DNA of 64,000 nucleotides from the NCBI RefSeq assembly GCF_001677475.2, contig NZ_CP015229.1, one strand, 5' to 3'. Below, piece by piece: positions 8,078-53,674 of the stretch; positions within the stretch are counted from its first letter, which is position 1; each line of letters starts with the position of its first letter. This stretch comes from Escherichia coli (GTDB lineage Bacteria; Pseudomonadota; Gammaproteobacteria; Enterobacterales; Enterobacteriaceae). Both the position numbers and the translations under genes were made by a program. The notes beneath the pieces were generated by a model. The model was given only the letters and a program-made list of their open reading frames with translations, was not told where the DNA came from and did no database searches.

Positions 8078-8154
<77 letters not shown>

Positions 8155-8196
8155 AATTTGCACCGCAAATTTGAAGAGGTTTTAACTACATGTTAT

Positions 8197-8272
8197 GGGG
8201 CTATAGCTCAGCTGGGAGAGCGCCTGCTTTGCACGCAGGAGGTCTGCGGTTCGATCCCGCATAGCTCCACCA
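8197..8272 (+). tRNA. alaV: tRNA-Ala (TGC)
   Basis: ggggctatagctcagctgggagagcgcctgctttgcacgcaggaggtctgcggttcgatcccgcatagctccacca. Confidence 0.97.
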
Positions 8273-8455
8273 TCTCTGTAGTGATTAAATAAAAAATACT
8301 TCAGAGTGTACCTGCAAAGGTTCACTGCGAAGTTTTGCTCTTTAAAAATCTGGATCAAGCTGAAAATTGAAACACTGAACAACGAAAGTTGTTCGTGAGT
8401 CTCTCAAATTTTCGCAACACGATGATGCATCGAAAGAAACATCTTCGGGTTGTGA

Positions 8456-11359
<2,904 letters not shown>

Positions 11360-11456
11360 CAACGCCGAAGATGTTTTGGCGGATAGAGAGAAGATTTTCA
11401 GCCTGATACAGATTAAATCGACAGGTCAGAACATGACGTGTTGATAAAACAGAATT

Positions 11457-11576
11457 TGCCTGGCGGCCGTAGCGCGGTGGTCCCACCTGACCCCATGCCG
11501 AACTCAGAAGTGAAACGCCGTAGCGCCGATGGTAGTGTGGGGTCTCCCCATGCGAGAGTAGGGAACTGCCAGGCAT
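11457..11576 (+). rRNA. rrfH: 5S ribosomal RNA
   Basis: tgcctggcggccgtagcgcggtggtcccacctgacc...gggaactgccaggcat; 120 nt. Confidence 0.98.
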
Positions 11577-11628
11577 CAAATTAAGCAGTAAGCCGGTCAT
11601 AAAACCGGTGGTTGTAAAAGAATTCGGT

Positions 11629-11705
11629 GGAGCGGTAGTTCAGTCGGTTAGAATACCTGCCTGTCACGCAGGGGGTCGCGGGTTCGAGTCCCGTCCGTTC
11701 CGCCA
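11629..11705 (+). tRNA. aspU: tRNA-Asp (GTC), distal gene of rrnH
   Basis: ggagcggtagttcagtcggttagaatacctgcctgtcacgcagggggtcgcgggttcgagtcccgtccgttccgcca; identical to the aspV copy at 19852..19928. Confidence 0.97.
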
Positions 11706-19851: not shown

Positions 19852-19928
19852 GGAGCGGTAGTTCAGTCGGTTAGAATACCTGCCTGTCACGCAGGGGGTC
19901 GCGGGTTCGAGTCCCGTCCGTTCCGCCA
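19852..19928 (+). tRNA. aspV: tRNA-Asp (GTC); integration site of the downstream island
   Basis: 77-nt sequence identical to aspU; followed by a hairpin terminator. Confidence 0.97.
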
Positions 19929-20059: not shown

Positions 20060-21106
20060 TTACTCCAGCGCATCCCATTTTTCCAGCAGTTCTACTGGAA
20101 TTTCATTTATTACCTCCGAGAAGCGTTTTCCGACCAGGCGTTCTGCCTGGCGCAGCAAAGGAATGGTCGGGCTGCTCGGTTCGCTGTGCTCAAACCAGCG
20201 ACGGATGACACGCAGGCGTTCCAGCGCGTCGTTCCGGTCGCGGATCTGCCGGGGTTCTGCGCCGGACATCGGTGATATTTCCTCCGCGATATGCACCGGT
20301 AGCGCAATCTGCTCTGATGATATCTCTTCAGTATGAACGATGGTGGTGCTCTCCGGCTGTTCAGCCACTGGTTGTGGCAGGATCTCCGGCGTGGTGGTCC
20401 GTATCGCTCCCGGCAACAGGGCCAGCAATTGTGTCAGACGGGATAGGTTCGGTGCCTGGTCATTCAGCGTTTCACGCGCATGGCGTTGCAGCCGCTCAGT
20501 GGTCTCTGCGGCCTGGCGAAAGGCATCCAGCGGCAGTGTGCCGCGCGCCTCCAGGTCGGCCAGTTGCTGGCGTACCGATTCTGGTGCCAGCGCATCCGCC
20601 GGGCGTGATGCAGACAGCGAACGCTCCACATCCCGTACCTGAAGGCGTATGGCAGCATTGTTTGACAGTGTAATGCCACGAATATCCGCTATTACGCCTT
20701 CATGGTCCAGCAACGCCGCCAGGGCGTTACTACGTGCCACTGCCGCCTCTTCGGCGGTGATATCTTCAGTCGCGAGCAGTTGAGGATGGATGGCGTTCGG
20801 GTACGTGGCGCACAACGTTTCCAGCAGCGCGAGCGCCTCCGCCAGTCCCCTGGCACCGGCCTGCTGGATACGGCAGCGCAGCAGGACAACCAGAATGCGG
20901 ATATCTTTGCTGCGCGTCAGCAGGCGGCAGGCATCCCGCTCAAGCTCCGCCCAGTTAATGGTTTCCGGCGTACTGACAAAATCGCCGTATTGCGCTTCTT
21001 CACGCGGTGCGGCGCGCGTGAACAGTAGCAGGTATTCCGGATCGTACTCCAGATCCGGGCCGCAGGGGCATTCTGCCGAAATTGGGTCAGACAGGGATGT
21101 ATCCAT
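20060..21106 (-). CDS. tssA: Type VI secretion protein TssA (ImpA-family N-terminal domain)
   Basis: 348-aa ORF at end of the tssE-F-G operon; size and context fit ImpA/TssA; family assignment from recall only. Confidence 0.6.
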   Translation of the reverse strand: MDTSLSDPISAECPCGPDLEYDPEYLLLFTRAAPREEAQYGDFVSTPETINWAELERDACRLLTRSKDIRILVVLLRCRIQQAGARGLAEALALLETLCATYPNAIHPQLLATEDITAEEAAVARSNALAALLDHEGVIADIRGITLSNNAAIRLQVRDVERSLSASRPADALAPESVRQQLADLEARGTLPLDAFRQAAETTERLQRHARETLNDQAPNLSRLTQLLALLPGAIRTTTPEILPQPVAEQPESTTIVHTEEISSEQIALPVHIAEEISPMSGAEPRQIRDRNDALERLRVIRRWFEHSEPSSPTIPLLRQAERLVGKRFSEVINEIPVELLEKWDALE

Positions 21107-22112: not shown

Positions 22113-23992
22113 ACGCTTCCCCGCTGTCCCGCCCTGGCAGGCCAGGTCATAATTTTGCCGCGCTGCATGCTGTGCAGCGTCATCTGCGAGAAGGTATTAA
22201 TGGAAACATGACGGGCGATATAGTGCTCCAACACCAGACCGAACAGATACGGACTGATACCGGAGAACCCCTCCTCATCCACGGTCAGTTCACAACTGAC
22301 GCCGCGCCCATAGACCAGCAGCCCGGAACCGGGCAGACGGCGGGTGACCGGGGTGGTGTTGCAGCCAATCAGGCTGCGCACCTGGCGCGACTGCGGACTG
22401 TCATGCGCCGGAATAAACAGGTTAAGCAGATCGCGCAGCGCCTGACCACCGGTACGGTGATCCAGATCGGCCAGCGGCAGATAGTTAAAGGATAACTGGC
22501 GGATCAACCGCCAGGCCATTTCACGTTCAGCCAGCGGAGGCTGCGGCGGACGCGGCGGACGGATAAGCCCCACGCCCGCCACCGGGATGGCCGCATCCAC
22601 GGTCAGATCGTCCCGTCCATTGCGGGCAATAAGACAGGGCAGATCGCGGTTGGTGACCATAGCCGTGATGGTGATATGGCGCAGATTTTCCGGGTATGGC
22701 GCTTCATACTGGTCAACCAGCGACAGGAACACTTCTGATCCTGTATAGGAGGTGCGGGTGCCATAGCGGCGGGCATTTTCCGACAACCGGCGCGGCTCCC
22801 GGCGCAGGGAAAAATAACGTCCGTGATTGCCTTCATCATTATTGCGGGTGTGGTAGAGCGGGCGAAAGGCCATCTTCCGTGTGGTGTCAGTTTCCAGCCC
22901 TTCCACTTCCTGGACCGAGAACACCTCATAATCCAGCGGATGGGTTCTGTCCACCACCAGATGCTGTTCCGTCGTGCTGTGCGTGACATCGATCCGGGCG
23001 GCGACTCGGGGAAACAGGTTGATAACCGGGGTACAGAACAGACTGAACTGTGCCGCGTTTGTCTGGTGGATCAGCCAGTCCGGCGGCAGGCGGTTCAGCA
23101 GGATAACAATCTCCGCCACTCCGCCTTCAATTTTCTGTAACCCGGCAGACAGGCCTGTCGGGGTGAAAAAAAAGAAGCGTTCCGGACAGGTAAAATATTC
23201 ATGTAGCAGGTTATGGCCGTGAAACACATTCCACGCCAGCGGCAACAGTCCCTGATCCGGATCCAGGCCTTCGTACATAACGGGCTGTTTCAGATTCACA
23301 TCCAGTGCGCCGTCAAAATGCCCCGGAATGCCAGCCAGGCTCGCGATGGCGCTGGTATGCAGTAGTTCGAACAGGTGTGAGGCCGTGCGCTCCTCGCCGC
23401 AGAGATAAAATGGTAGCTTGTTCAGCCCTGCAAGCTGACTGAACGTCAGTTCACCAAAGGTGCGCAGGGTAATACGCAGCGCACCAGCGACGTGAATGTT
23501 GGCTGGCAGGTAGCGGTGCAGGGCAGGCATATCCGGCGGCGCGGCGGTCAGGCGCACCTCTTCGATGGCAAGCGGCCACAGCGTCACATTCTGGCTGCTA
23601 CGAAACTGGCAGGCAGTACTTTCGCCTTCCGGAATGGCGGAAAAAAAGGCCGTGTTGCGCGGGACGGTGAATCCCTTCGCCAGATCGCCTTCTTCCGGAT
23701 CGGGATGAAGCTGCGCCACGCTCATTGAGGGCGTGGGTGTGACGTAATTGGGGCTGACCACTTCCAGCAGGCGCTGGGTGAAACGGGGGAATTCAGCGTC
23801 AATTTTTAGCTGCGTGCGGGCGGTCAGGAAGCTGAAGGCCTCGACCATTCGCTCCACATACGGATCGGCAATATCCGTTCCCTGCATACCCAGTCGGGCG
23901 GCGACTTTAGGATGACGGGCGGCAAATTCGGCTCCCGTTTCCCGCAGATAGCTCAGTTCGCGGTTGTAGTATTCCAGTAGCCGTGGATCCAT
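22109..23992 (-). CDS. tssF: Type VI secretion baseplate protein TssF
   Basis: 627-aa ORF; length and operon position. Confidence 0.85.
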   Translation of the reverse strand: MDPRLLEYYNRELSYLRETGAEFAARHPKVAARLGMQGTDIADPYVERMVEAFSFLTARTQLKIDAEFPRFTQRLLEVVSPNYVTPTPSMSVAQLHPDPEEGDLAKGFTVPRNTAFFSAIPEGESTACQFRSSQNVTLWPLAIEEVRLTAAPPDMPALHRYLPANIHVAGALRITLRTFGELTFSQLAGLNKLPFYLCGEERTASHLFELLHTSAIASLAGIPGHFDGALDVNLKQPVMYEGLDPDQGLLPLAWNVFHGHNLLHEYFTCPERFFFFTPTGLSAGLQKIEGGVAEIVILLNRLPPDWLIHQTNAAQFSLFCTPVINLFPRVAARIDVTHSTTEQHLVVDRTHPLDYEVFSVQEVEGLETDTTRKMAFRPLYHTRNNDEGNHGRYFSLRREPRRLSENARRYGTRTSYTGSEVFLSLVDQYEAPYPENLRHITITAMVTNRDLPCLIARNGRDDLTVDAAIPVAGVGLIRPPRPPQPPLAEREMAWRLIRQLSFNYLPLADLDHRTGGQALRDLLNLFIPAHDSPQSRQVRSLIGCNTTPVTRRLPGSGLLVYGRGVSCELTVDEEGFSGISPYLFGLVLEHYIARHVSINTFSQMTLHSMQRGKIMTWPARAGQRGSV

Positions 23993-41000: not shown

Positions 41001-41905
41001 ATTCGCTGCTGACAATGCTCAATGAGTATTACACCCAGCTCACCATCGCCGACAGTGCATTGGCAGCGAGCACATTACCGGGCCGCATTTCGGCGGCGGA
41101 TAAACTACAACTGGAAGCGGCAAAACTGCCCGCACCGCTGAAAAATATTCTGCTGGATCTCACGCAGCAGGGAACGCGAAAGATCAACGCCGGCACCGGT
41201 GAAGTGCTGAACGCGCAGATGGAGGCGGTGATCGGTGATGAGTGCCGTGACGCCATTGACGGGCGCTATCCCTTCACCGACAGCCCGCAGGAAGTCAGCG
41301 CGGACGATTTTAACCGTATCTTTGCTAGCGGCGGTGTGCTGGATGCCTTCTGGACGAAGCAACTGGCCCCGCTGGCGGATACCGCCAGCAACCCGTGGCG
41401 ATACAAACCGACCGAAGGCAACATGACTTTACAGGGGCCGGACCTGACGCCGTTTCAGGAGGCGAAACAGATCCGCAGCGTGTTTTTTAACGGCGACGGC
41501 GGGAAAAAGTTCTCCTGGGCGATGCAGGTCCGCGTCGTGGATATGGACCCGGCCATCACCGAACTGGTGATTGACATTGACGGCCAGGTACTGCGTTACG
41601 CTCACGGCCCGGTCAGGCCGCTGAAAGTGAACTGGCCGGGTCCGCGCAACGGCTCAATGGCGGAAATAACCGCCAGCCCGCGCATCCGCCAGGACACCTC
41701 GACGCTGCTGACTAATGGACCGTGGGCGCTGTTTCACCTGCTGGATGCGGGAAAAGCGCAAGAAACGGCGGTACGGGGAATACAGCAGGTGGAGTACAGC
41801 TTTGACGGGCGGCGGGTGATACTGGAAATCACCGCCGGACGGGATTTTGACCCAGTGGATCGCGGACTATTGCAACTCTTCGCCTGCCCGGAGCGAGCGC
41901 TGTGA
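38039..41905 (+). CDS. tssM: T6SS membrane complex protein TssM (IcmF)
   Basis: 1288-aa ORF; N-terminal TM helices; Walker A GSPGDGKTT. Confidence 0.92.
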   Translation: MQKFLSLLFSRRTLAVVGVVVLALLVWFIGPLVAFDTLHPLASVGSRVVTIVLLLMFLALWLVNWSMSIIGVTVLCLVIGFVSPLLAFGDVYPFAPLWLRLTLIGLILLSYTLYGLYRLWRALRLDEQLLRRFLHPRGEDVPVAGEIKADLRTVSHIVTRAIRQLKQLRVDLPGWRKVLEGKRFLYELPWFMVIGSPGDGKTTALLNTGLQFPLAEQMEQTAHILTVPGGGTLHCDWWFTNEAVLIDTAGRYARHDDGGEISATQRNAGEWQGFLGLLRKHRPGAPLNGVILTLNVADLTAQSPAERLAACAALRARLAELRETLGIRFPVYLVVTKMDLLPGFTEYFRGLTSHLRAQVWGFTLPYSRRRHASDPQSLHALCGQELANLTLRLDQGLDTRLQEEYDLKSRQRLYRFPREFAALGAPLLEAIEQIFLDSKFDATQLNNTLRGVFFTSAAQAQADAVADQTGIWQRFVRAIKGKVESPSHTLPDGNRSYFLHDLLTQFIFREAHLVEPNLQWAWRYRLLRTGGHLLVLALAFWLWQGMQGSQQGNSGYLNEIASRTVQLDGDVKAYTGKPAMQPVPVLLNQARALSAWPGLDPDSPPLAWRYGLYSVPPVMESVASLYDRLLDQLLLPPLVKRMEYVLSDAIARQDSKAAYDALHVYLLLNLDKDHEDKYNAAEIHAWVLNDLENRDSVAEFGGRAAVLEHIDALFDGSRVVHSPYDKDEGLIRMARAFLDGHTSTERIYTRALASMESEAPQEFSLVRAVGADAGTVFVRTDGAPLDRGVPGIFTREGYRELFDKRLSEFVASASADDAWVMGRENAQKKTTDIVMSQLPGQELPVTREVRRLYLAEYARRWQDFLASIHSINSAGEDGSPGLAYDLQVLRTLASPDSPLMRLSKAVVEQTTLVPPLDAQARQKQMAQRAQDRLSGNAGKAVQTAKLLQDIHPEERLEKSLVDDRFAALREVVSGRTDSGQGGGAPQLNSLLTMLNEYYTQLTIADSALAASTLPGRISAADKLQLEAAKLPAPLKNILLDLTQQGTRKINAGTGEVLNAQMEAVIGDECRDAIDGRYPFTDSPQEVSADDFNRIFASGGVLDAFWTKQLAPLADTASNPWRYKPTEGNMTLQGPDLTPFQEAKQIRSVFFNGDGGKKFSWAMQVRVVDMDPAITELVIDIDGQVLRYAHGPVRPLKVNWPGPRNGSMAEITASPRIRQDTSTLLTNGPWALFHLLDAGKAQETAVRGIQQVEYSFDGRRVILEITAGRDFDPVDRGLLQLFACPERAL

Positions 41906-42151: not shown

Positions 42152-42847
42152 ATGCAACAATATACGCGTTTTTTTATTATTTTTTTGTTATATGCCATGT
42201 CAGGAAATGTTTTTGCTGATATCAGAAAAAACACAGGAACTATTGACCCCGATTATATTAATCTCAGTGCGCAGGAATTTTTGTCATTTTATGCTCGTGG
42301 AACGTCACAGGAAAAAGAAAATGTTCTGATGTATGTCCTTGGTGTGAGTGATGCGACAGAAAGTAAAACCTGGTGTGGATATAATAAGATTAATGAAATA
42401 GAACTTTATTCATCGGTACTGACATATCTTAATCAGCAGTCGGTTAACGATATGAATATGCGAGCTTCAACTCTGATTGAACAAGCGATGGTCAGGCTGT
42501 TTCCCTGCCCGGATATGGCATCACCGGAAAAAAAATCTCCCCGGCAGTCATCTGTTTCACACCTGACCTCTGGCGCGTTCGATCTGAACGGAGATGATTT
42601 TTTCCGCTTCTGGCAGTCAGATAACAGGCAGGATAGGCTTAATGCGAAAATCTATCTTTTGGGTATAGAAGATGCCACGGAAAGAAAAACATGGTGCGAT
42701 TATAAAACGATTAAAACAGTTACACTGGATGAGATTATTTACTGGTATTTCAGAAAAAAAACGTCAGATAAACTGAATGAACGGGCTGCAAATATTATTA
42801 TTGAGGCACTAAGTAAACACTCCTGTGATAAAGGAAATAATAAATGA
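42152..42847 (+). CDS. Secreted protein with two tandem homologous domains; candidate immunity for Tae4
   Basis: 231-aa AT-rich ORF; signal peptide (FFIIFLLYAMSGNVFA); internal repeat (…VLMYVLGVSDATESKTWCGYNKI… vs …IYLLGIEDATERKTWCDYKTI…). Confidence 0.4.
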   Translation: MQQYTRFFIIFLLYAMSGNVFADIRKNTGTIDPDYINLSAQEFLSFYARGTSQEKENVLMYVLGVSDATESKTWCGYNKINEIELYSSVLTYLNQQSVNDMNMRASTLIEQAMVRLFPCPDMASPEKKSPRQSSVSHLTSGAFDLNGDDFFRFWQSDNRQDRLNAKIYLLGIEDATERKTWCDYKTIKTVTLDEIIYWYFRKKTSDKLNERAANIIIEALSKHSCDKGNNK

Positions 42848-43320
42848 AACCTTCATTTTTCACACTTAAAAAAAAACATTACTCATCAGTTCAGATTGAT
42901 GGTGATGTTTTGTACAGTGAAGTGGGTTATAACTATGAAGCACTGCAACAGCAAAATGCTGGTTATGTAAATACCTGTGCCACACGTATGAGTCTGGCGC
43001 TGATTAAATCAGGCGTCAGCTTTAACGGGCGACTGACGATCAAAAGTGGTGACTGGAAAGGGAAGAAAATAGAAACCGGTGCGAAATTACTGGCAGATCA
43101 GCTTTCCCGAGCTGATGTTTTTGGAAGACCAGTTATCTGGTGTGACTCAGAAAAATTTAAAACAGACACCAGTAATAAAAGAGGAGTGGTCTTTTTCTGG
43201 AAGATTACGGGTTACGGTGGCGGTCATATTGATCTTATTGAGCCTTCTACCACAGGTGCTATATGTCATTCACATTGCTATTTTAGCTGCAAGGAAATCT
43301 GGTTCTGGGAACTGAATTAA
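42844..43320 (+). CDS. tae4: Tae4-family T6SS amidase effector (peptidoglycan D-Glu-mDAP amidase family)
   Basis: 158-aa ORF, ATGA-coupled; Cys45 in NTCATRMSLAL and His128 in GGGHIDLIE, then CHSHCYF, as recalled for Tae4; no signal peptide. Confidence 0.6.
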   Translation: MKPSFFTLKKKHYSSVQIDGDVLYSEVGYNYEALQQQNAGYVNTCATRMSLALIKSGVSFNGRLTIKSGDWKGKKIETGAKLLADQLSRADVFGRPVIWCDSEKFKTDTSNKRGVVFFWKITGYGGGHIDLIEPSTTGAICHSHCYFSCKEIWFWELN

Positions 43321-43505: not shown

Positions 43506-44276
43506 GTGATGCGCCGGGCAGAGATATCGGCCCCGGCGATGTTCGGCAGACTGCCGGACCAGCGGGACTATGTGCGCTGGCGGGTGAGCGCGAACGAAGG
43601 GCAGGTGTGGCAGGCGTGGCTGAACCAGCAAACGTGGCTGGGACAGGGGCGGCATATTGTTCTGCCGGAAGGAACGGATGCTGCGAAGACCGGAGTAAAT
43701 GACGGTTGGATGCACCTGTCACCGAGCGAGAAAACGGCGGTGCCGGAACACCATCCGCTACCGTGGAGCTTTGTATTATCGCCGGGATTTTTATCCATTG
43801 GTGGGCGCGATGAGTGGCTGACCGGGGTACTGACCGCCTCGCGTGACAGCACGGGCAGGCCGTGGCCGCTGGTGATTTACCAGCGTGCCGGACGGGAATG
43901 GCTGGAAGAGAGTCTGGATGAAACGCAAGGCTGGCTGTACTGGCTGGCAAGACTGGCGGCAGTACATGTCTCACCACAGACAGAACGCTGCGGGCGGCTG
44001 GCGGAGCAGGCAGACCAGCTGTGGGCGATGTGGCGACCGGGGCCGCGCTGGGCGCAGTGGTTGCGTGGTTTGCGGCGTGTACCGCAGCGCAGCCGGGAAC
44101 TCACCGGCCTGCCGGACGCACCGGTAGTGGAACTGCCCGGCGTGCGGCACCTGCCGTGGCCGGGCTGGCCGGACAAAATGCTGACGCAGGCACAACAAGG
44201 GCAGGGCTGGTTCTGGCAGCAGAACAGCGAGGGGCGGTATGTGGATGCGCTGCGGCTGACGGGGCAATCCTCATAA
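43506..44276 (+). CDS. tagF: T6SS-associated protein TagF (ImpM/DUF2094)
   Basis: 256-aa GC-rich ORF; N-terminal FGRLPDQRDYV resembles TagF F(Y)GKLPxxGDF motif. Confidence 0.55.
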   Translation: MMRRAEISAPAMFGRLPDQRDYVRWRVSANEGQVWQAWLNQQTWLGQGRHIVLPEGTDAAKTGVNDGWMHLSPSEKTAVPEHHPLPWSFVLSPGFLSIGGRDEWLTGVLTASRDSTGRPWPLVIYQRAGREWLEESLDETQGWLYWLARLAAVHVSPQTERCGRLAEQADQLWAMWRPGPRWAQWLRGLRRVPQRSRELTGLPDAPVVELPGVRHLPWPGWPDKMLTQAQQGQGWFWQQNSEGRYVDALRLTGQSS

Positions 44277-44342
44277 TATATAAAATCATATTTCCCCCCA
44301 AAATATTTCAGATGAAACCAGATAATATTTAACGAGAATAAA

Positions 44343-45044
44343 ATGACCAAGCTTAAATATGATGAAAACGGCCTGCTAGCAGAATACTATGCAAAAACAG
44401 ATATTGACGGTGATGTCATCACTCACAAAGATGACAGAATGACGTATTTATTAAATAAAAATACTGGCTCTATTTCTGTAGTGATAAAGTGGAAGTATGA
44501 GTGGTATAAGGATAATACCGTTACAGATGACTGGACTGTATTGGAAAAAGCTATTTTCATGAGATCAGTATATTTATCTGTTCAACAGGCATGGAATGGG
44601 AAAATAACTTATTCTGTTTCCGGTGAATCTGAGTTCGCTAAAAAATTTCAGGGGAAAGCTTTGCCTTTTGATGTGAGGATAATCCCTGTATCTCAGAATG
44701 AAGACTGGTTGGTAATTGCAACTAAAGTTTTGCCTGGTGCTGATTTAAGAACGTATGTTGATTTTAAGAACAGCACGGTTCATGTTGACTCAGCAGACCT
44801 GGAAAAAGTAGCAAAATGTTTTAATTGTAACAATACAGTGCAAATAAATATACCACATGAAGCCGGACATGTACTTGGTTACTTAGATGATGATTATGAT
44901 TCTTCGTCTCCGTATGTTGGAGATGTTAGTGGGCTGATGAATATGGGAATGGAACTCCGGGAAAGATATCTTAAAAACTCAACTATAACGTTGAATGTAA
45001 TAATGCCTGATACTAACTTCACTCTATTGAATGTAACCAAATGA
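44343..45044 (+). CDS. Putative zinc metallopeptidase toxin (HExxHxxGxxD motif), no signal peptide; candidate T6SS effector
   Basis: 233-aa AT-rich ORF; HEAGHVLGYLDD; immediately upstream of vgrG. Confidence 0.5.
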   Translation: MTKLKYDENGLLAEYYAKTDIDGDVITHKDDRMTYLLNKNTGSISVVIKWKYEWYKDNTVTDDWTVLEKAIFMRSVYLSVQQAWNGKITYSVSGESEFAKKFQGKALPFDVRIIPVSQNEDWLVIATKVLPGADLRTYVDFKNSTVHVDSADLEKVAKCFNCNNTVQINIPHEAGHVLGYLDDDYDSSSPYVGDVSGLMNMGMELRERYLKNSTITLNVIMPDTNFTLLNVTK

Positions 45045-45427
45045 AATTAATCTGTATTATAGTGTTCTTTCTTTCAATAAATTACGTAATCACAGCAAAT
45101 GTTTTCGAGCCTTCTGTAGTTTTTCAATCTCCCAGGTATTATGAGGAAAATGATATACAGAATGGAAATAACGATGCTTTTTTTGTGAAAAAATACGGCC
45201 CGCCTGTTCATGAGTTCATGAAGCCACGATATAAGTTTGCCGGTGAATATTATATCGGCTTGAATCAGACTTATCGCATCACAAACCCTGAATTTAAAGA
45301 TGTGCCTATTAAAGAAATGTTCTGGAATCTGCAAGAGGATTTAAATCTTACATGCTGGTTCCATTATAAAGACGGGCAGTGGCGGGTTATTTCTTATATT
45401 TTTTGGCCACCAGGGGCTAAATTTTAA
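45041..45427 (+). CDS. Secreted small protein, candidate immunity for the metallopeptidase
   Basis: 128-aa ORF, ATGA-coupled; N-terminal signal peptide (MKLICIIVFFLSINYVITANVF). Confidence 0.45.
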   Translation: MKLICIIVFFLSINYVITANVFEPSVVFQSPRYYEENDIQNGNNDAFFVKKYGPPVHEFMKPRYKFAGEYYIGLNQTYRITNPEFKDVPIKEMFWNLQEDLNLTCWFHYKDGQWRVISYIFWPPGAKF

Positions 45428-45451
45428 TCCGGTATTAAAGGAGTAAACACC

Positions 45452-47665
45452 ATGAGTTTTGTATCTACGGGTAATAAACCAGTTGGAAACGGTAGACCCG
45501 TCATCACCACACCACCAATAGCTCGCGAAAGTGGCGGTATGAGCGCAAGTTCAGCCGCAACCGATGTAGCTGATGCAGCCGAACAGATGGCAGAACAGGC
45601 AGTTGCAGATCTATTTGGTGCGCTTCCAGAACCGTCAGGACTGGTTAAAGCTGCAGTAGCTGCTGCGCAGGCCGCCGCCGCCGCGGCAGGGATCTCGGAT
45701 ATGGCTGGTGCAGCTCAGGATGCGGCGGCATCGCTTGCTGCCGCTGGTTCGGGGGCGCATAACGTCACAGTAAGTGGTAGTGCGGTGCCGGCGCAGATGC
45801 TGCTGTTCGCAGGTATGAATGGTTCGGAAGGGCTTGGGAATCTGTTTTCCTATACAGTACAGCTTAAAACGCCTGACACCCTGAACCTCGGATATGTCTC
45901 CCCTGCTGCCAATCTGCCGCTCAAACCGATGGTGGGCAAAGACCTGTGCGTCAATATTGAACTGGAGGGCGGCGGCAAACGGCATATCAGCGGGCTGGTG
46001 ACGGCTGCGAGGGTAGTCGGTCACGAGGGGCGCTCGGTCACGTATGAATTGCGCATTGAACCGTGGTTGAAGCTGCTGACCCACACCAGCGACTACAAAG
46101 CCTTCCAGAACAAAACCGTGGTGGATATTCTCGATGAAGTCCTGGCTGAATATTCCTTTCCGGTGGAAAAGCGGCTGGTGGAAAATTATCCGCCCCGCGC
46201 CTGGCAGGTGCAGTATGGTGAAACCGATTTTGATTTCATCCAGCGCCTGATGCAGGAATGGGGTATCTACTGGTGGTTTGAGCACAGCGAGAACAGCCAC
46301 ACGCTGGTACTGGCTGATGCCATCAATGGTCATAAAACGTGCCCGGACTCGCCGCTGGTAGAGTGGCACCAGGAAGGACTGAAGCTCGATAAGGAATTTA
46401 TCCACACCATTACGGCCAGTGAGAGGCTGCGTACTGGAAAGTGGGTGCTGGACGATTTTGATTTTATGAAGCCGCGTTCACTGCTGAAAAGTACCGTGGC
46501 TAATCCGCGTGATACCGGTCATGCTGAATATGAGCATTACGAATGGCCTGGTGATTACTTCACTATGGGGGAAGGCGAGATGCTGACGCGCATTCGTATG
46601 GAAGCGCAGCGCAGCCCTGGCAGCCGGGTTGGAGGGGCGGGGAATATCCGCACCCTCATGACTGGTTACACCTTTACGTTGATGAATCATCCGACGGCGG
46701 AGGTCAACCAGGAATATCTGCTGGTGCAGACCACACTGTTTTTACGGGACAATGCGCAGTACAGCGGCCAGGACCAGCATTTTACCTATGTCACCACGTT
46801 CGAACTGCACCCTACCAGTGAAGTCTACCGCCCACAGCGAACCCTGAGCAAACCTCATACCAAAGGCCCGCAGAGCGCCATCGTCACCGGTCCGGCGGGG
46901 CAGGAAATCTGGACGGATAAATATGGCCGGGTGAAGGTGCAGTTTGGCTGGGATCGTTATGGTAACAATGACGAAAACAGCTCCTGCTGGGTCCGTGTTA
47001 GCTATCCGTGGGCGGGAAAAGGATTCGGCATGATCCAGATCCCGCGTATTGGCCAGGAAGTGCTGGTGGATTTCAAAAATGGTGACCCGGATTTACCCAT
47101 CATCGTGGGGCGTACCTATAACCAGGACACGATGCCGCCGTGGGGATTGCCTGGCATGGCGTCGCAGAGCGGGATATTCAGCCATTCGTTACAGGGGGGG
47201 CCGACCAACGGAAACATGCTGCGCTTTGATGACAAAACGGGGGCGGAAGAGGTGAAGTTCCATGCGGAAAAAGACCTCAATACCACAGTAAAAAACAATG
47301 AAACCCACACGGTCATGGTCGATCGCACAAAAACCATTGTCAAAAATGAAACCATCAGCGTGGGAGAAGACCGTAATGCCACCATCACAAACAATGATGG
47401 GCTTTCCGTCAAACTAGCTCAAACCATCAATGTCGGGACGACATATCGTCTGGACGTTGGCGAGCAATTTACCCTTCGCTGCGGCAATGCAGCGCTTGTA
47501 TTACACAAGGATGGCTCGATTGAGTTTTGCGGAAAACAACTTTTACTGCACGCCAGCGATGTGATGCAACTCATTGGCAGTGGTATTGATATGAATCCGG
47601 ATGGCGGAAAAGCCATTACTGCGAATGATATTGCCCCAGTACCCACTCCGGATGCTTCTGAATAA
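45452..47665 (+). CDS. vgrG: T6SS spike protein VgrG (TssI) with ~100-aa Ala-rich N-terminal extension
   Basis: 737-aa ORF; RBS aaggag before ATG 45452; canonical VgrG region begins near residue 105 ([34 protein letters not shown]). Confidence 0.88.
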
Positions 47666-47688: not shown

Positions 47689-48132
47689 ATGACCAGCCTT
47701 TACCGTATTCAGGAGGGCAGCTTTGCCCTGCCTGAAACTTTTCTTGATCGCACCGTCAATATCTTCGTCCCGTCGGGCAATGAGAGGGCAACTCCCAGTC
47801 TGAATATTTCCCGCGACACGCTCAGGCCCGAGGAAAACCTGACCACCTACATTGACCGCCAGATAGCCTTGATGAAAAAAAACCTGGGTCAGCACCGGGT
47901 ACTTTCGCGGGGAACGGCAGTGGCGGGAACTGGCGAAGCTGCCATGGCAGGTGAACAAATTCTCGCAACTCACCGTTCTGGAAAAACAGAAGTGTATCAG
48001 CGTCAGGCCGGGTTTATCACCGGGCCAGGAAAGGTTCTGGTGTTAACCCTGACCTGTCAACGTCCTTTTGATGAGCATACTGACCAGCTATGGACTGTCT
48101 GGTTGACCAGTTTTCAGCCCGCTAAGAGTTAA
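47689..48132 (+). CDS. eagR: DUF1795-family Eag chaperone (EagR-like) for the downstream prePAAR-Rhs effector
   Basis: 147-aa ORF between vgrG and rhs; size and position typical of Eag chaperones. Confidence 0.6.
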
Positions 48133-48137
48133 AATAA

Positions 48138-52623
<4,486 letters not shown>

Positions 52624-53166: not shown

Positions 53167-53610
53167 ATGGTACTTAAAAAATGATGGAGCATATTTCTAT
53201 TATCCCTGATTACAGACAAGCCTAGAAAGTGGAACATAATTTGTCAGATATTCTACTGTTGACTATTTGTGCCGTCATTTTCGGGGCTGAAGGATAGGAA
53301 GATATAGAGGATTTTGGAGAAACACATCTCGATTTTTTGAAGCAATATGGTCATTTTAAAAATGGCATCCCCGTTCACGATTCCATTGCCAGAGTTGGAT
53401 CCTGTATCAGTCCTGCAAAATTTTAACTGGATGCGTGACTGCCATTCCTCAAATGATAAAGACATTATCGCAATTGATGGAAAAACGCTCCGGCACTCTT
53501 ATGATAAGAGTCGCCGCAAGGGAGCGATTCATGTCATTAGTGCGTTCTCAACTATGCACAGTCTGAGCCTTGGGCAGATTAAGACAGATGAGAAATCCAA
53601 TGAGATTACA
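53167..53610 (+). pseudogene. yafF: Truncated, mutated ISAs1-family (H-repeat) transposase remnant, yafF-like
   Basis: Matches recalled YhhI/H-rpt N-terminus (…MEHISIIPDYRQA…ICAVI…[13 protein letters not shown]…NWMRDCHSS…[33 protein letters not shown]…[10 protein letters not shown]) but with TGG->TAG stops, frameshifts and truncation after ~150 codons. Confidence 0.8.
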
Positions 53611-53674
53611 GTGACCGCGCGTCAGTCCTTGCGGAGGGCGTCTACCCAGCCCCTTCCCTAAAAACAACGCCCAC

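Follow-up and report, generated by a model that had tools for sequence, protein, structure and literature searches.

The so-called evolved VgrGs, such as VgrG1-ACD and VgrG3 of Vibrio cholerae and the VgrG1 of enteroaggregative Escherichia coli (EAEC) with its DUF2345/TTR region, are spikes of type VI secretion systems (T6SSs) that carry added C-terminal modules. To our knowledge, the well-studied VgrG add-ons all sit at this C-terminal tip, where the effectors mount, and we know of no system in which a conserved add-on at the opposite end, facing Hcp and the baseplate, has been explained. Here we describe such an add-on in a VgrG encoded by a 64,000-nt stretch of the E. coli contig NZ_CP015229.1, hereafter the window, whose positions are used for all coordinates. 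The gene (vgrG, 45452-47665, plus strand) encodes a protein of 737 aa, and an earlier note on this DNA had remarked on a strong ribosome binding site before ATG 45452 and on about 100 Ala-rich residues ahead of the conserved VgrG region, proposing either that the true start is internal or that this VgrG has an unusual N-terminal appendage. Sequence comparison shows that the gene encodes a canonical TssI/VgrG spike and, ahead of it, ~100 lineage-specific residues on which purifying selection acts.

The closest described relative is VgrS of Salmonella Typhimurium (STM0289 / SL1344_0284; PDB 9MLP), an orthologue 85-90% identical over its full length. Both proteins have the same extension, the same motif within it and the same junction to the hub, and both genes are followed by genes for an Eag-type chaperone and a prePAAR-Rhs protein. 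The window allele is of the E. coli/Shigella type: it encodes 737 aa instead of the 729 of VgrS, with an Ala spacer 8 residues longer and another variable segment, and the cassettes upstream of the two genes also differ. Among VgrS-type VgrGs, which are already represented in the databases, the window protein is, then, a new member of the E. coli/Shigella type. In the work on VgrS, the insolubility of the full-length protein led the authors to cut off residues 1-80, which they took for predicted disorder and to which they assigned no function (10.1101/2024.12.20.629533). The truncated protein (81-729) was soluble and gave a crystal trimer with an unusual open, domain-swapped hub, its cup enlarged to ~52 Å; gel filtration showed no binding of this protein to Hcp2, for which the authors name the placement of the N-terminal tag as a possible cause. 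That preprint does not discuss the N-terminal region further, nor does it consider the missing extension as a reason for the open hub (10.1101/2024.12.20.629533). PDB 9MLP is the only solved structure of this VgrG lineage and lacks residues 1-80, and the appendage has been noticed before only as "disorder" to delete.

Beyond the appendage, the protein has the complete VgrG architecture, all of it encoded on the plus strand. The gp27-like hub (Pfam Phage_GPD; 45827-46753, aa 126-434) was recognised with E = 1.1e-101 and 340 bits against a cut-off of 30, and the oligonucleotide/oligosaccharide-binding (OB) fold (Phage_base_V; 46916-47119, aa 489-556; E = 3e-14) and the gp5-like beta-helix needle (Gp5_trimer_C; 47168-47491, aa 573-680; E = 1.2e-29) also scored above their cut-offs. 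The NCBIfam model TIGR03361 (TssI/VgrG) gave 555 bits against a cut-off of 186, with model position 7 paired with aa 112. Hub, OB fold, needle and a T6SS-cluster setting, the features of a VgrG/TssI spike (TIGR03361, TIGR01646), are all present, and the alignment to solved VgrGs runs through residue 724.

Where a normal VgrG would begin was clear from the same comparisons. The first residues of solved VgrGs (4MTK, 4UHV, 7Q5P, 8QJA; residues 1-19) pair with window residues 99-115; for instance, residue 1 of 8QJA falls on aa 99, while residue 16 of 4MTK and residue 19 of 7Q5P both fall on aa 115. When VgrG residues 1-233 were used as the tblastn query against plasmid and chromid records, 267 of the 270 matching records were below 60% identity, and VgrGs from outside Escherichia and Salmonella, among the matches listed, aligned only from residue 103-122 onward; in the three such records that we checked, the annotated start lay 4-15 codons 5' of that point. 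The canonical part thus opens at about residue 97-105, as the Pfam and TIGR03361 matches, the solved structures and the plasmid records agree, and the observation that conserved VgrG sequence begins only near residue 105 stands. Since known VgrG N-termini start near this position, the window protein carries about 95-100 residues beyond the normal VgrG N-terminus.

These additional codons could be an annotation artefact, with the true start internal (at Met84, Met116 or Met122) and the 100 codons before it an untranslated leader that is open by chance. The position at which typical VgrGs start, about window residue 97-105, would agree with this, as would the fact that truncated VgrS 81-729 folds and is soluble. 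The signals for initiation point the other way. The vgrG start codon Met1 (45452-45454, plus strand) is the first start codon past the upstream in-frame stop and the one annotated by NCBI in E. coli, and it is preceded by the Shine-Dalgarno (SD) site AAAGGAGU (45437-45444, plus strand), 7-8 nt upstream, with a predicted duplex energy of -8.2 kcal/mol with the anti-SD sequence at the 16S 3' end. This is the strongest site among all the in-frame ATG, GTG and TTG codons of the first 135 codons, so the strong ribosome binding site reported in the earlier note was found as described. Its suggestion that the internal Met at 45701 (45701-45703, plus strand; Met84) be scored as a start gave a moderate SD-like site, GGCAGGG, at -6.2 kcal/mol, weaker than that of ATG 45452; the other in-frame candidates ranged from 0 to -3.9 kcal/mol.

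We then compared ten DNA alleles of the gene: that of the window, four from other Escherichia loci, one from Citrobacter and four from Salmonella. In all ten the frame is open from the same ATG, and every length difference between them is in frame, at a proportion of synonymous differences (pS) of ~0.5, which speaks against a leader left open by chance. The SD is kept as AAGGAG in eight of the ten, with purine-rich variants in L003 (AAAGGAA) and in the Salmonella locus L008. The ORF opens with MSFVST in all alleles, and does so even in the latter, where unrelated DNA precedes the ATG; SD and ATG are thus retained even beside unrelated upstream DNA. Alignment of the N-termini of related clusters, also proposed in the earlier note, lent no support to initiation at an internal Met: Met84 is Ile or deleted in L007, L008, L009 and others, Met116 is Ala or Leu in others, and the stretch from the motif to the core is devoid of Met in 12 of 120 full-length homologues. 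Estimates of selection by the method of Nei and Gojobori on the same alleles put the mean dN/dS at 0.22 in the extension and at 0.08 in the remainder of the protein. In the motif (columns 54-70), the ratio of nonsynonymous to synonymous proportions (pN/pS) was 0.10 while pS was 0.50. The unchanged peptide amid so many silent changes places the constraint on the protein and not on the DNA. The internal-start alternative is in our judgement almost certainly wrong, and Met84 is rejected as a conserved start; it is the appendage, the other alternative of the earlier note, that the conserved frame, in-frame indels, protein-level selection and conserved SD and ATG bear out. We infer from this comparative evidence, which we call strong, that ATG 45452 is used. 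The long form is also the one annotated by NCBI in the three E. coli genomes inspected, and products of 729-737 aa are recorded, by source names and lengths, in Salmonella, Shigella, E. marmotae and Citrobacter. Annotations should retain the long start. As for the DNA around it, positions 44000-46500 gave no Rfam match to a structured RNA or leader.

A related proposal is that both starts are used, giving a long form from Met1 and a short form of canonical length that are mixed in spikes or have different roles. Some Met lies between the motif and the core in 108 of the 120 full-length homologues, and the SD-like site at Met84 in the window would serve such a start. But one Salmonella allele family dominates that count, the Met of the E. 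coli type and that of the Salmonella type do not share an alignment column, other alleles lack it, and no conserved internal SD was seen. We regard dual initiation as very improbable.

The low complexity reported in the earlier note is real, though not uniform. Ala accounts for 31% of residues 1-104 and for 43% of residues 31-100, and the latter stretch is the most Ala-rich and lowest-entropy 70-aa window among 1266 such windows from the 38 long ORFs of the 64 kb; the Ala-rich peptide quoted in the earlier note corresponds to residues 67-102. The description falls short in one respect: the extension also contains strictly conserved, non-repetitive motifs, among them a near-invariant one of 13-16 residues. 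No tandem DNA repeat underlies the Ala tract: Tandem Repeats Finder reported none at a score of at least 30, there being only short two-copy matches, and the Ala codons are mixed (GCA 10, GCT 9, GCC 7, GCG 6), which together ruled out a tract produced by slippage. The extension is net acidic (9 D/E against 4 K/R), and its most hydrophobic 19-mer has a mean Kyte-Doolittle value of 1.49, under the usual transmembrane threshold (~1.6) of that crude scale.

We divided the extension into four segments and a junction, all on the plus strand, using alignments of 10 (A1), 23 (A2) and 21 (A3) distinct sequences. Segment I (45452-45538, aa 1-29; MSFVST...TTPP) is a Gly/Pro/Thr-rich tail with pN/pS 0.34; judged on A1 and A3, M1, F3, S5, T6, K9, T20, P21 and P22 are invariant. 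Segment II (45539-45610, aa 30-53), which includes AAEQMAEQA, is an acidic Ala-rich predicted helix with five acidic and no basic residues and, at pN/pS 0.47, is the most variable segment. It leads into segment III (45611-45658, aa 54-69), the near-invariant motif, which includes LPEPSGLVK and has the pN/pS of 0.10 at pS 0.50 given above. In this motif L54, G56 and L58-K66 are invariant in all three alignments, A67-V69 are invariant in A1 and A2 and at least 90% conserved in A3, and the pattern, beginning L[FM], was found in 171 of 175 retrieved N-termini. Segment IV (45659-45745, aa 70-98) is an Ala-rich spacer of variable length with two predicted helices and pN/pS 0.31, in which alleles differ by in-frame deletions and duplications of ~5-18 residues. 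The junction (45746-45790, aa 99-113; GGPGAHN, with the pattern G(G/S)(P/G) at its opening) runs into the first hub strand and is highly conserved, all three alignments keeping G99, H103, N104, T106 and S108-P113 without change. The whole extension measures 88-106 aa in the homologues. With its motif and junction in the ~90-105 residues before the hub, the window protein has the features by which we define VgrS-type VgrGs. Separately, several deposited N-terminal fragments (among P0001-P0063) shift out of frame just past the Ala tract (...GISD, then unrelated sequence); these could be assembly errors or genuine pseudogenes, and the tract may be prone to sequencing errors.

The extension has no confident autonomous fold. 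AlphaFold2 (AF2) was run on shallow inputs of 21-23 close sequences, and its results are weak hints only. The full-length run, with 23 close homologues, had a mean pLDDT of 29 and failed even in the core; that on residues 1-150 reached a pLDDT of ~40, with helices at 35-54, 61-78 and 85-97. Both runs, at low confidence, place helices at about 33-55, 61-78 and 84-97 (the helix of segment II at 33-55 in one and 35-54 in the other, with low pLDDT) and no secondary structure in segment I or elsewhere in residues 1-30, so that three weak helices are hinted at. Taken together, and with the shallowness of those alignments in mind, poor folding, an invariant motif and flanks that vary in sequence and length would fit the pattern of a tether with a linear motif.

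An invariant short motif amid variable, length-tolerant and poorly folding flanks is the pattern expected of a tether that carries a docking motif. Fusion to the first hub strand requires the three copies of the extension to leave the spike at its Hcp-facing base. The reading that we favour, and judge on the whole to be probable, is that the extension is a selected, lineage-specific, translated appendage that works as a flexible tether and displays a docking motif at this base. Each spike would have three flexible, conditionally folding tethers, holding the short motif at the tube-proximal end. By inference only, the extension would most likely lie inside the gp27 cup, at its mouth or in the first Hcp ring. 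There the motif would bind an assembly partner, which might be Hcp, TssA, baseplate proteins or lumenal cargo, and this binding could aid hub closure and tube nucleation or hold the cargo. The acidic character of the extension, the electropositive floor of the cup, the insolubility of full-length VgrS and the open truncate that does not bind Hcp fit the picture of an extension in the cup or Hcp ring; none of them demonstrates it. A bolder form of the idea, which we consider doubtful, is that these proteins constitute an "N-terminally evolved" class of VgrG, in which three acidic Ala-rich tethers reach into the gp27 cup and first Hcp ring and LPEPSGLVK triggers hub closure and Hcp-tube nucleation or holds lumenal cargo. 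If true, it could explain both the open hub of truncated VgrS and its failure to bind Hcp2.

Several observations weigh against the tether reading. The N-terminus may point into the cup and lumen, but it may also point outward to the baseplate, and both AF2 models are of low confidence. The open hub and the failed Hcp2 binding may have other causes, which the authors of the VgrS preprint list. Outside the motif, dN/dS rises to 0.3-0.5, a sign of loose constraint on much of the extension, and the evidence for the long start is comparative. Finally, VgrG1 of Pseudomonas aeruginosa (4MTK) and the 645-aa VgrG of 7Q5P have N-termini that match window residue ~100 and no extension; to judge from these sequences, the extension is not a general requirement of VgrG spikes. 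Because such related spikes work without any extension, its role, whatever that may be, is specific to this enterobacterial lineage.

A different use of the tube-facing end would be as a payload, the Ala-rich helices being a membrane-active or toxic peptide held in the tube or cup and delivered with the spike. The hydrophobic 19-mer and the insolubility of full-length VgrS could be read in this way, as could a chance-level likeness (E = 0.13) to the Ala-rich coiled coil of the type III secretion protein SipB. Against this, the region carries a net acidic charge, its hydrophobic moments are low (0.20-0.32) and its hydrophobicity stays under the transmembrane threshold; nor do we see any immunity logic, and the matches to SipB and to tape-measure proteins are not significant. 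A lumenal payload therefore seems to us quite improbable.

The 5' end of the gene has a history different from that of the remainder. Among the Salmonella alleles (L006-L009), the first ~150 codons are 65-84% identical to one another at the nucleotide level, while the rest of vgrG is mostly 94-100% identical, with a dip to 79-87% in columns 401-450. The G+C content at third codon positions (GC3) is 0.34-0.40 in codons 1-100 and 0.56-0.76 in codons 101-600, stepping from ~0.35 to ~0.65 across this block; the core T6SS genes tssM, hcp and tagF have 0.61-0.72. In all ten alleles the GC3 of the extension is below that of the core, and it resembles that of the AT-rich upstream cassettes (0.32-0.36), unlike the vgrG core. 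The drop in identity among the Salmonella alleles and the GC3 pattern indicate that the extension and the first ~45 hub residues (45452-45901, plus strand, codons 1-~150) form a mosaic block that recombines with the variable upstream region. In the window this region holds two ORFs on the plus strand, of 233 aa (44343-45044; GC3 0.32) and 128 aa (45041-45427; GC3 0.36), which overlap by 4 nt and have no match in Pfam, NCBIfam or PDB. They are replaced by other genes in L002, L006 and L009; the genes found in their place are a 268+120-aa pair, a DUF2195 gene with a 173-aa gene, and a 279-aa gene. The pair is probably an uncharacterised variable cassette, of effector and immunity or of accessory genes. 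We discarded the possibility that they are Tvp accessory proteins, which belong to DUF2169/DUF4150 (PMC13373197), while the ORFs here match no family. We also discarded a one-to-one pairing of extension allele and upstream cassette, because L001 and L002 have near-identical extensions but different cassettes.

E. coli GF4-3 (L001 2070-2930, NZ_CP053258.1) has a second copy of the vgrG 5' end, 252 codons long and then interrupted by a stop, with a complete extension. This remnant lies behind a different two-gene cassette and upstream of the intact cassette and vgrG, and it looks like the relic of a cassette exchange by recombination in the vgrG 5' end.

The mosaic block suggests a further explanation, that the extension is a dispensable fusion, a harmless translated by-product of recombination with the upstream cassettes whose DNA serves as the homology anchor for their exchange. 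Besides the block itself and the cassette-like GC3, the GF4-3 remnant with its whole extension behind a second cassette, the tolerance of the spacer for large indels and the related VgrGs that need no extension are all in line with this. It does not account for a motif that is invariant as protein with synonymous sites near saturation, since this reflects selection on the peptide and not on the DNA, nor for the retention of the extension across Escherichia/Shigella, Citrobacter and Salmonella without loss. We hold this explanation to be unlikely.

Carriers of the extension were identified in E. coli, Shigella flexneri, E. marmotae, another Escherichia sp., Citrobacter farmeri, C. amalonaticus and Salmonella enterica; the locus is uncommon in E. 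coli, with 144 of 5426 complete genomes having it. A VgrG protein identical to that of the window has been recorded from E. coli, and Shigella flexneri and E. marmotae are both represented in its 90% cluster. A phmmer search with residues 1-104 against 1.84 billion cluster representatives returned 24 proteins, all of them close (at least 60% identical) and most of them short fragments, and a word-indexed search for distant homologues yielded short fragments only. A scan for the motif in 100,044 species genomes matched only an Escherichia sp. and Citrobacter amalonaticus, a lower bound since some known carriers were missed. Among phages, tblastn found nothing but two tiny mislabelled Salmonella/E. 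coli records. No family was found for residues 1-104 in Pfam-A or PHROGs (best E = 0.13-4.4, to Bromo_coat, T3SSipB and a tape-measure PHROG, none significant) or in NCBIfam; the sole match among PDB sequences was 9MLP, over the junction; and a search of the rest of the 64-kb window for a paralogue or mimic, for instance in Hcp or TssA, gave chance-level matches only. As far as these sequence searches reach, the extension is restricted to one VgrG lineage (Escherichia/Shigella, Citrobacter and the Salmonella SPI-6 VgrS), with no detectable homologue outside it. The literature yielded no report on the function of an N-terminal or alanine-rich extension of VgrG. The element is present in model pathogens, in the Salmonella SPI-6 T6SS and in Shigella flexneri, as well as in some E. 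coli; the invariant motif of a selected extension is a concrete target for mutagenesis, and truncated VgrG constructs may lack a functional element.

The vgrG gene sits in a complete T6SS island that adjoins a tRNA-Asp gene (19852-19928). Pfam identified TssA (of the short ImpA_N type), TssG, TssF, TssE, TagJ, Hcp, TssJ, TssK, TssL, an OmpA-like protein, TagF and a Rap1a/Tae4 pair; TssM was assigned via orthologous E. coli annotation, and ClpV, TssB and TssC by position and size only. The low-GC genes for the Rap1a-family immunity protein and the Tae4 amidase effector (42152-43320) lie between tssM (end at 41905) and tagF (43506-44276), while in the E. coli loci L002 and L003 tagF directly follows tssM. 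Downstream of vgrG, on the plus strand (47689-52295), come an Eag-type chaperone gene (DcrB/DUF1795) and the gene of a prePAAR-PAAR-Rhs effector (Pfam DcrB, prePAAR_I, PAAR_motif, RHS_repeat), which is predicted from its sequence to be loaded on the tip of the window VgrG. The DcrB gene follows vgrG in all the annotated loci, and a prePAAR-Rhs gene comes next except in L009, where none is listed.

Other features of the region were recorded in passing. The tRNA-Asp gene marks the insertion site of the island, with tssA (20060-21106, minus strand), the first of the T6SS genes, ~130 bp away, and a set of tRNA genes like that of an rRNA operon (Ile-GAT, Ala-TGC, then Asp-GTC) lies upstream (8078-11705). 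We take a 94-nt "tRNA-His" called within tssF (22233-22326, minus strand) to be a probable false positive. At the other end, a small ORF (52288-52623) overlapping the stop codon of the Rhs gene is likely an immunity gene, and a DDE transposase fragment (53347-53661) lies 3' of the Rhs gene, with ivy and fadE beyond it; fadE of the window shares 98.6% identity with that of E. coli.

In gene content (short ImpA_N TssA, TagJ, TagF) the cluster resembles what we take to be the arrangement of the H1-T6SS of P. aeruginosa. The VgrG1 of that species (PA0091; 4MTK, 4UHV, 6H3L) and the VgrG of 7Q5P match window residues 115-724 (E = 1e-126 to 1e-133), a stretch spanning hub, OB fold and needle, but they begin at the equivalent of window residue ~97-100 and have no N-terminal appendage. 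A lineage-specific N-terminal extension on a component of the spike complex has a parallel in Francisella, where the extension of the PAAR-like protein IglG is reportedly required for virulence, to go by the title of the study; IglG, however, is a PAAR-like cap at the tip and has no sequence relationship with the window VgrG. Hub cavities are occupied in other contractile systems, by gp29 in the gp27 hub of phage T4 and by the tape-measure proteins Afp14 and Pvc14 of extracellular contractile injection systems. The likeness to these is conceptual only, that of an Ala-rich, helical, poorly folded chain that could lie inside hub and tube. Unlike them, the extension shows no homology to tape measures (the PHROGs match, at E = 4.4, is chance), is a covalent part of the hub and is far too short for the T6SS tube. 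The comparison returns us to the evolved VgrGs, of which the EAEC VgrG1 DUF2345/TTR structure (6SJL) was matched when the window VgrG was compared with PDB. Their modules are placed at the C-terminal tip, outside the tube, and have recognisable folds that are effectors or bind adaptors, whereas that of the window protein faces the tube, at the other end, and lacks a recognisable fold. If the doubtful idea of an N-terminally evolved class were true, such a VgrG would be a spike with a covalent internal adaptor or plug, one without counterpart in the T6SSs described so far.

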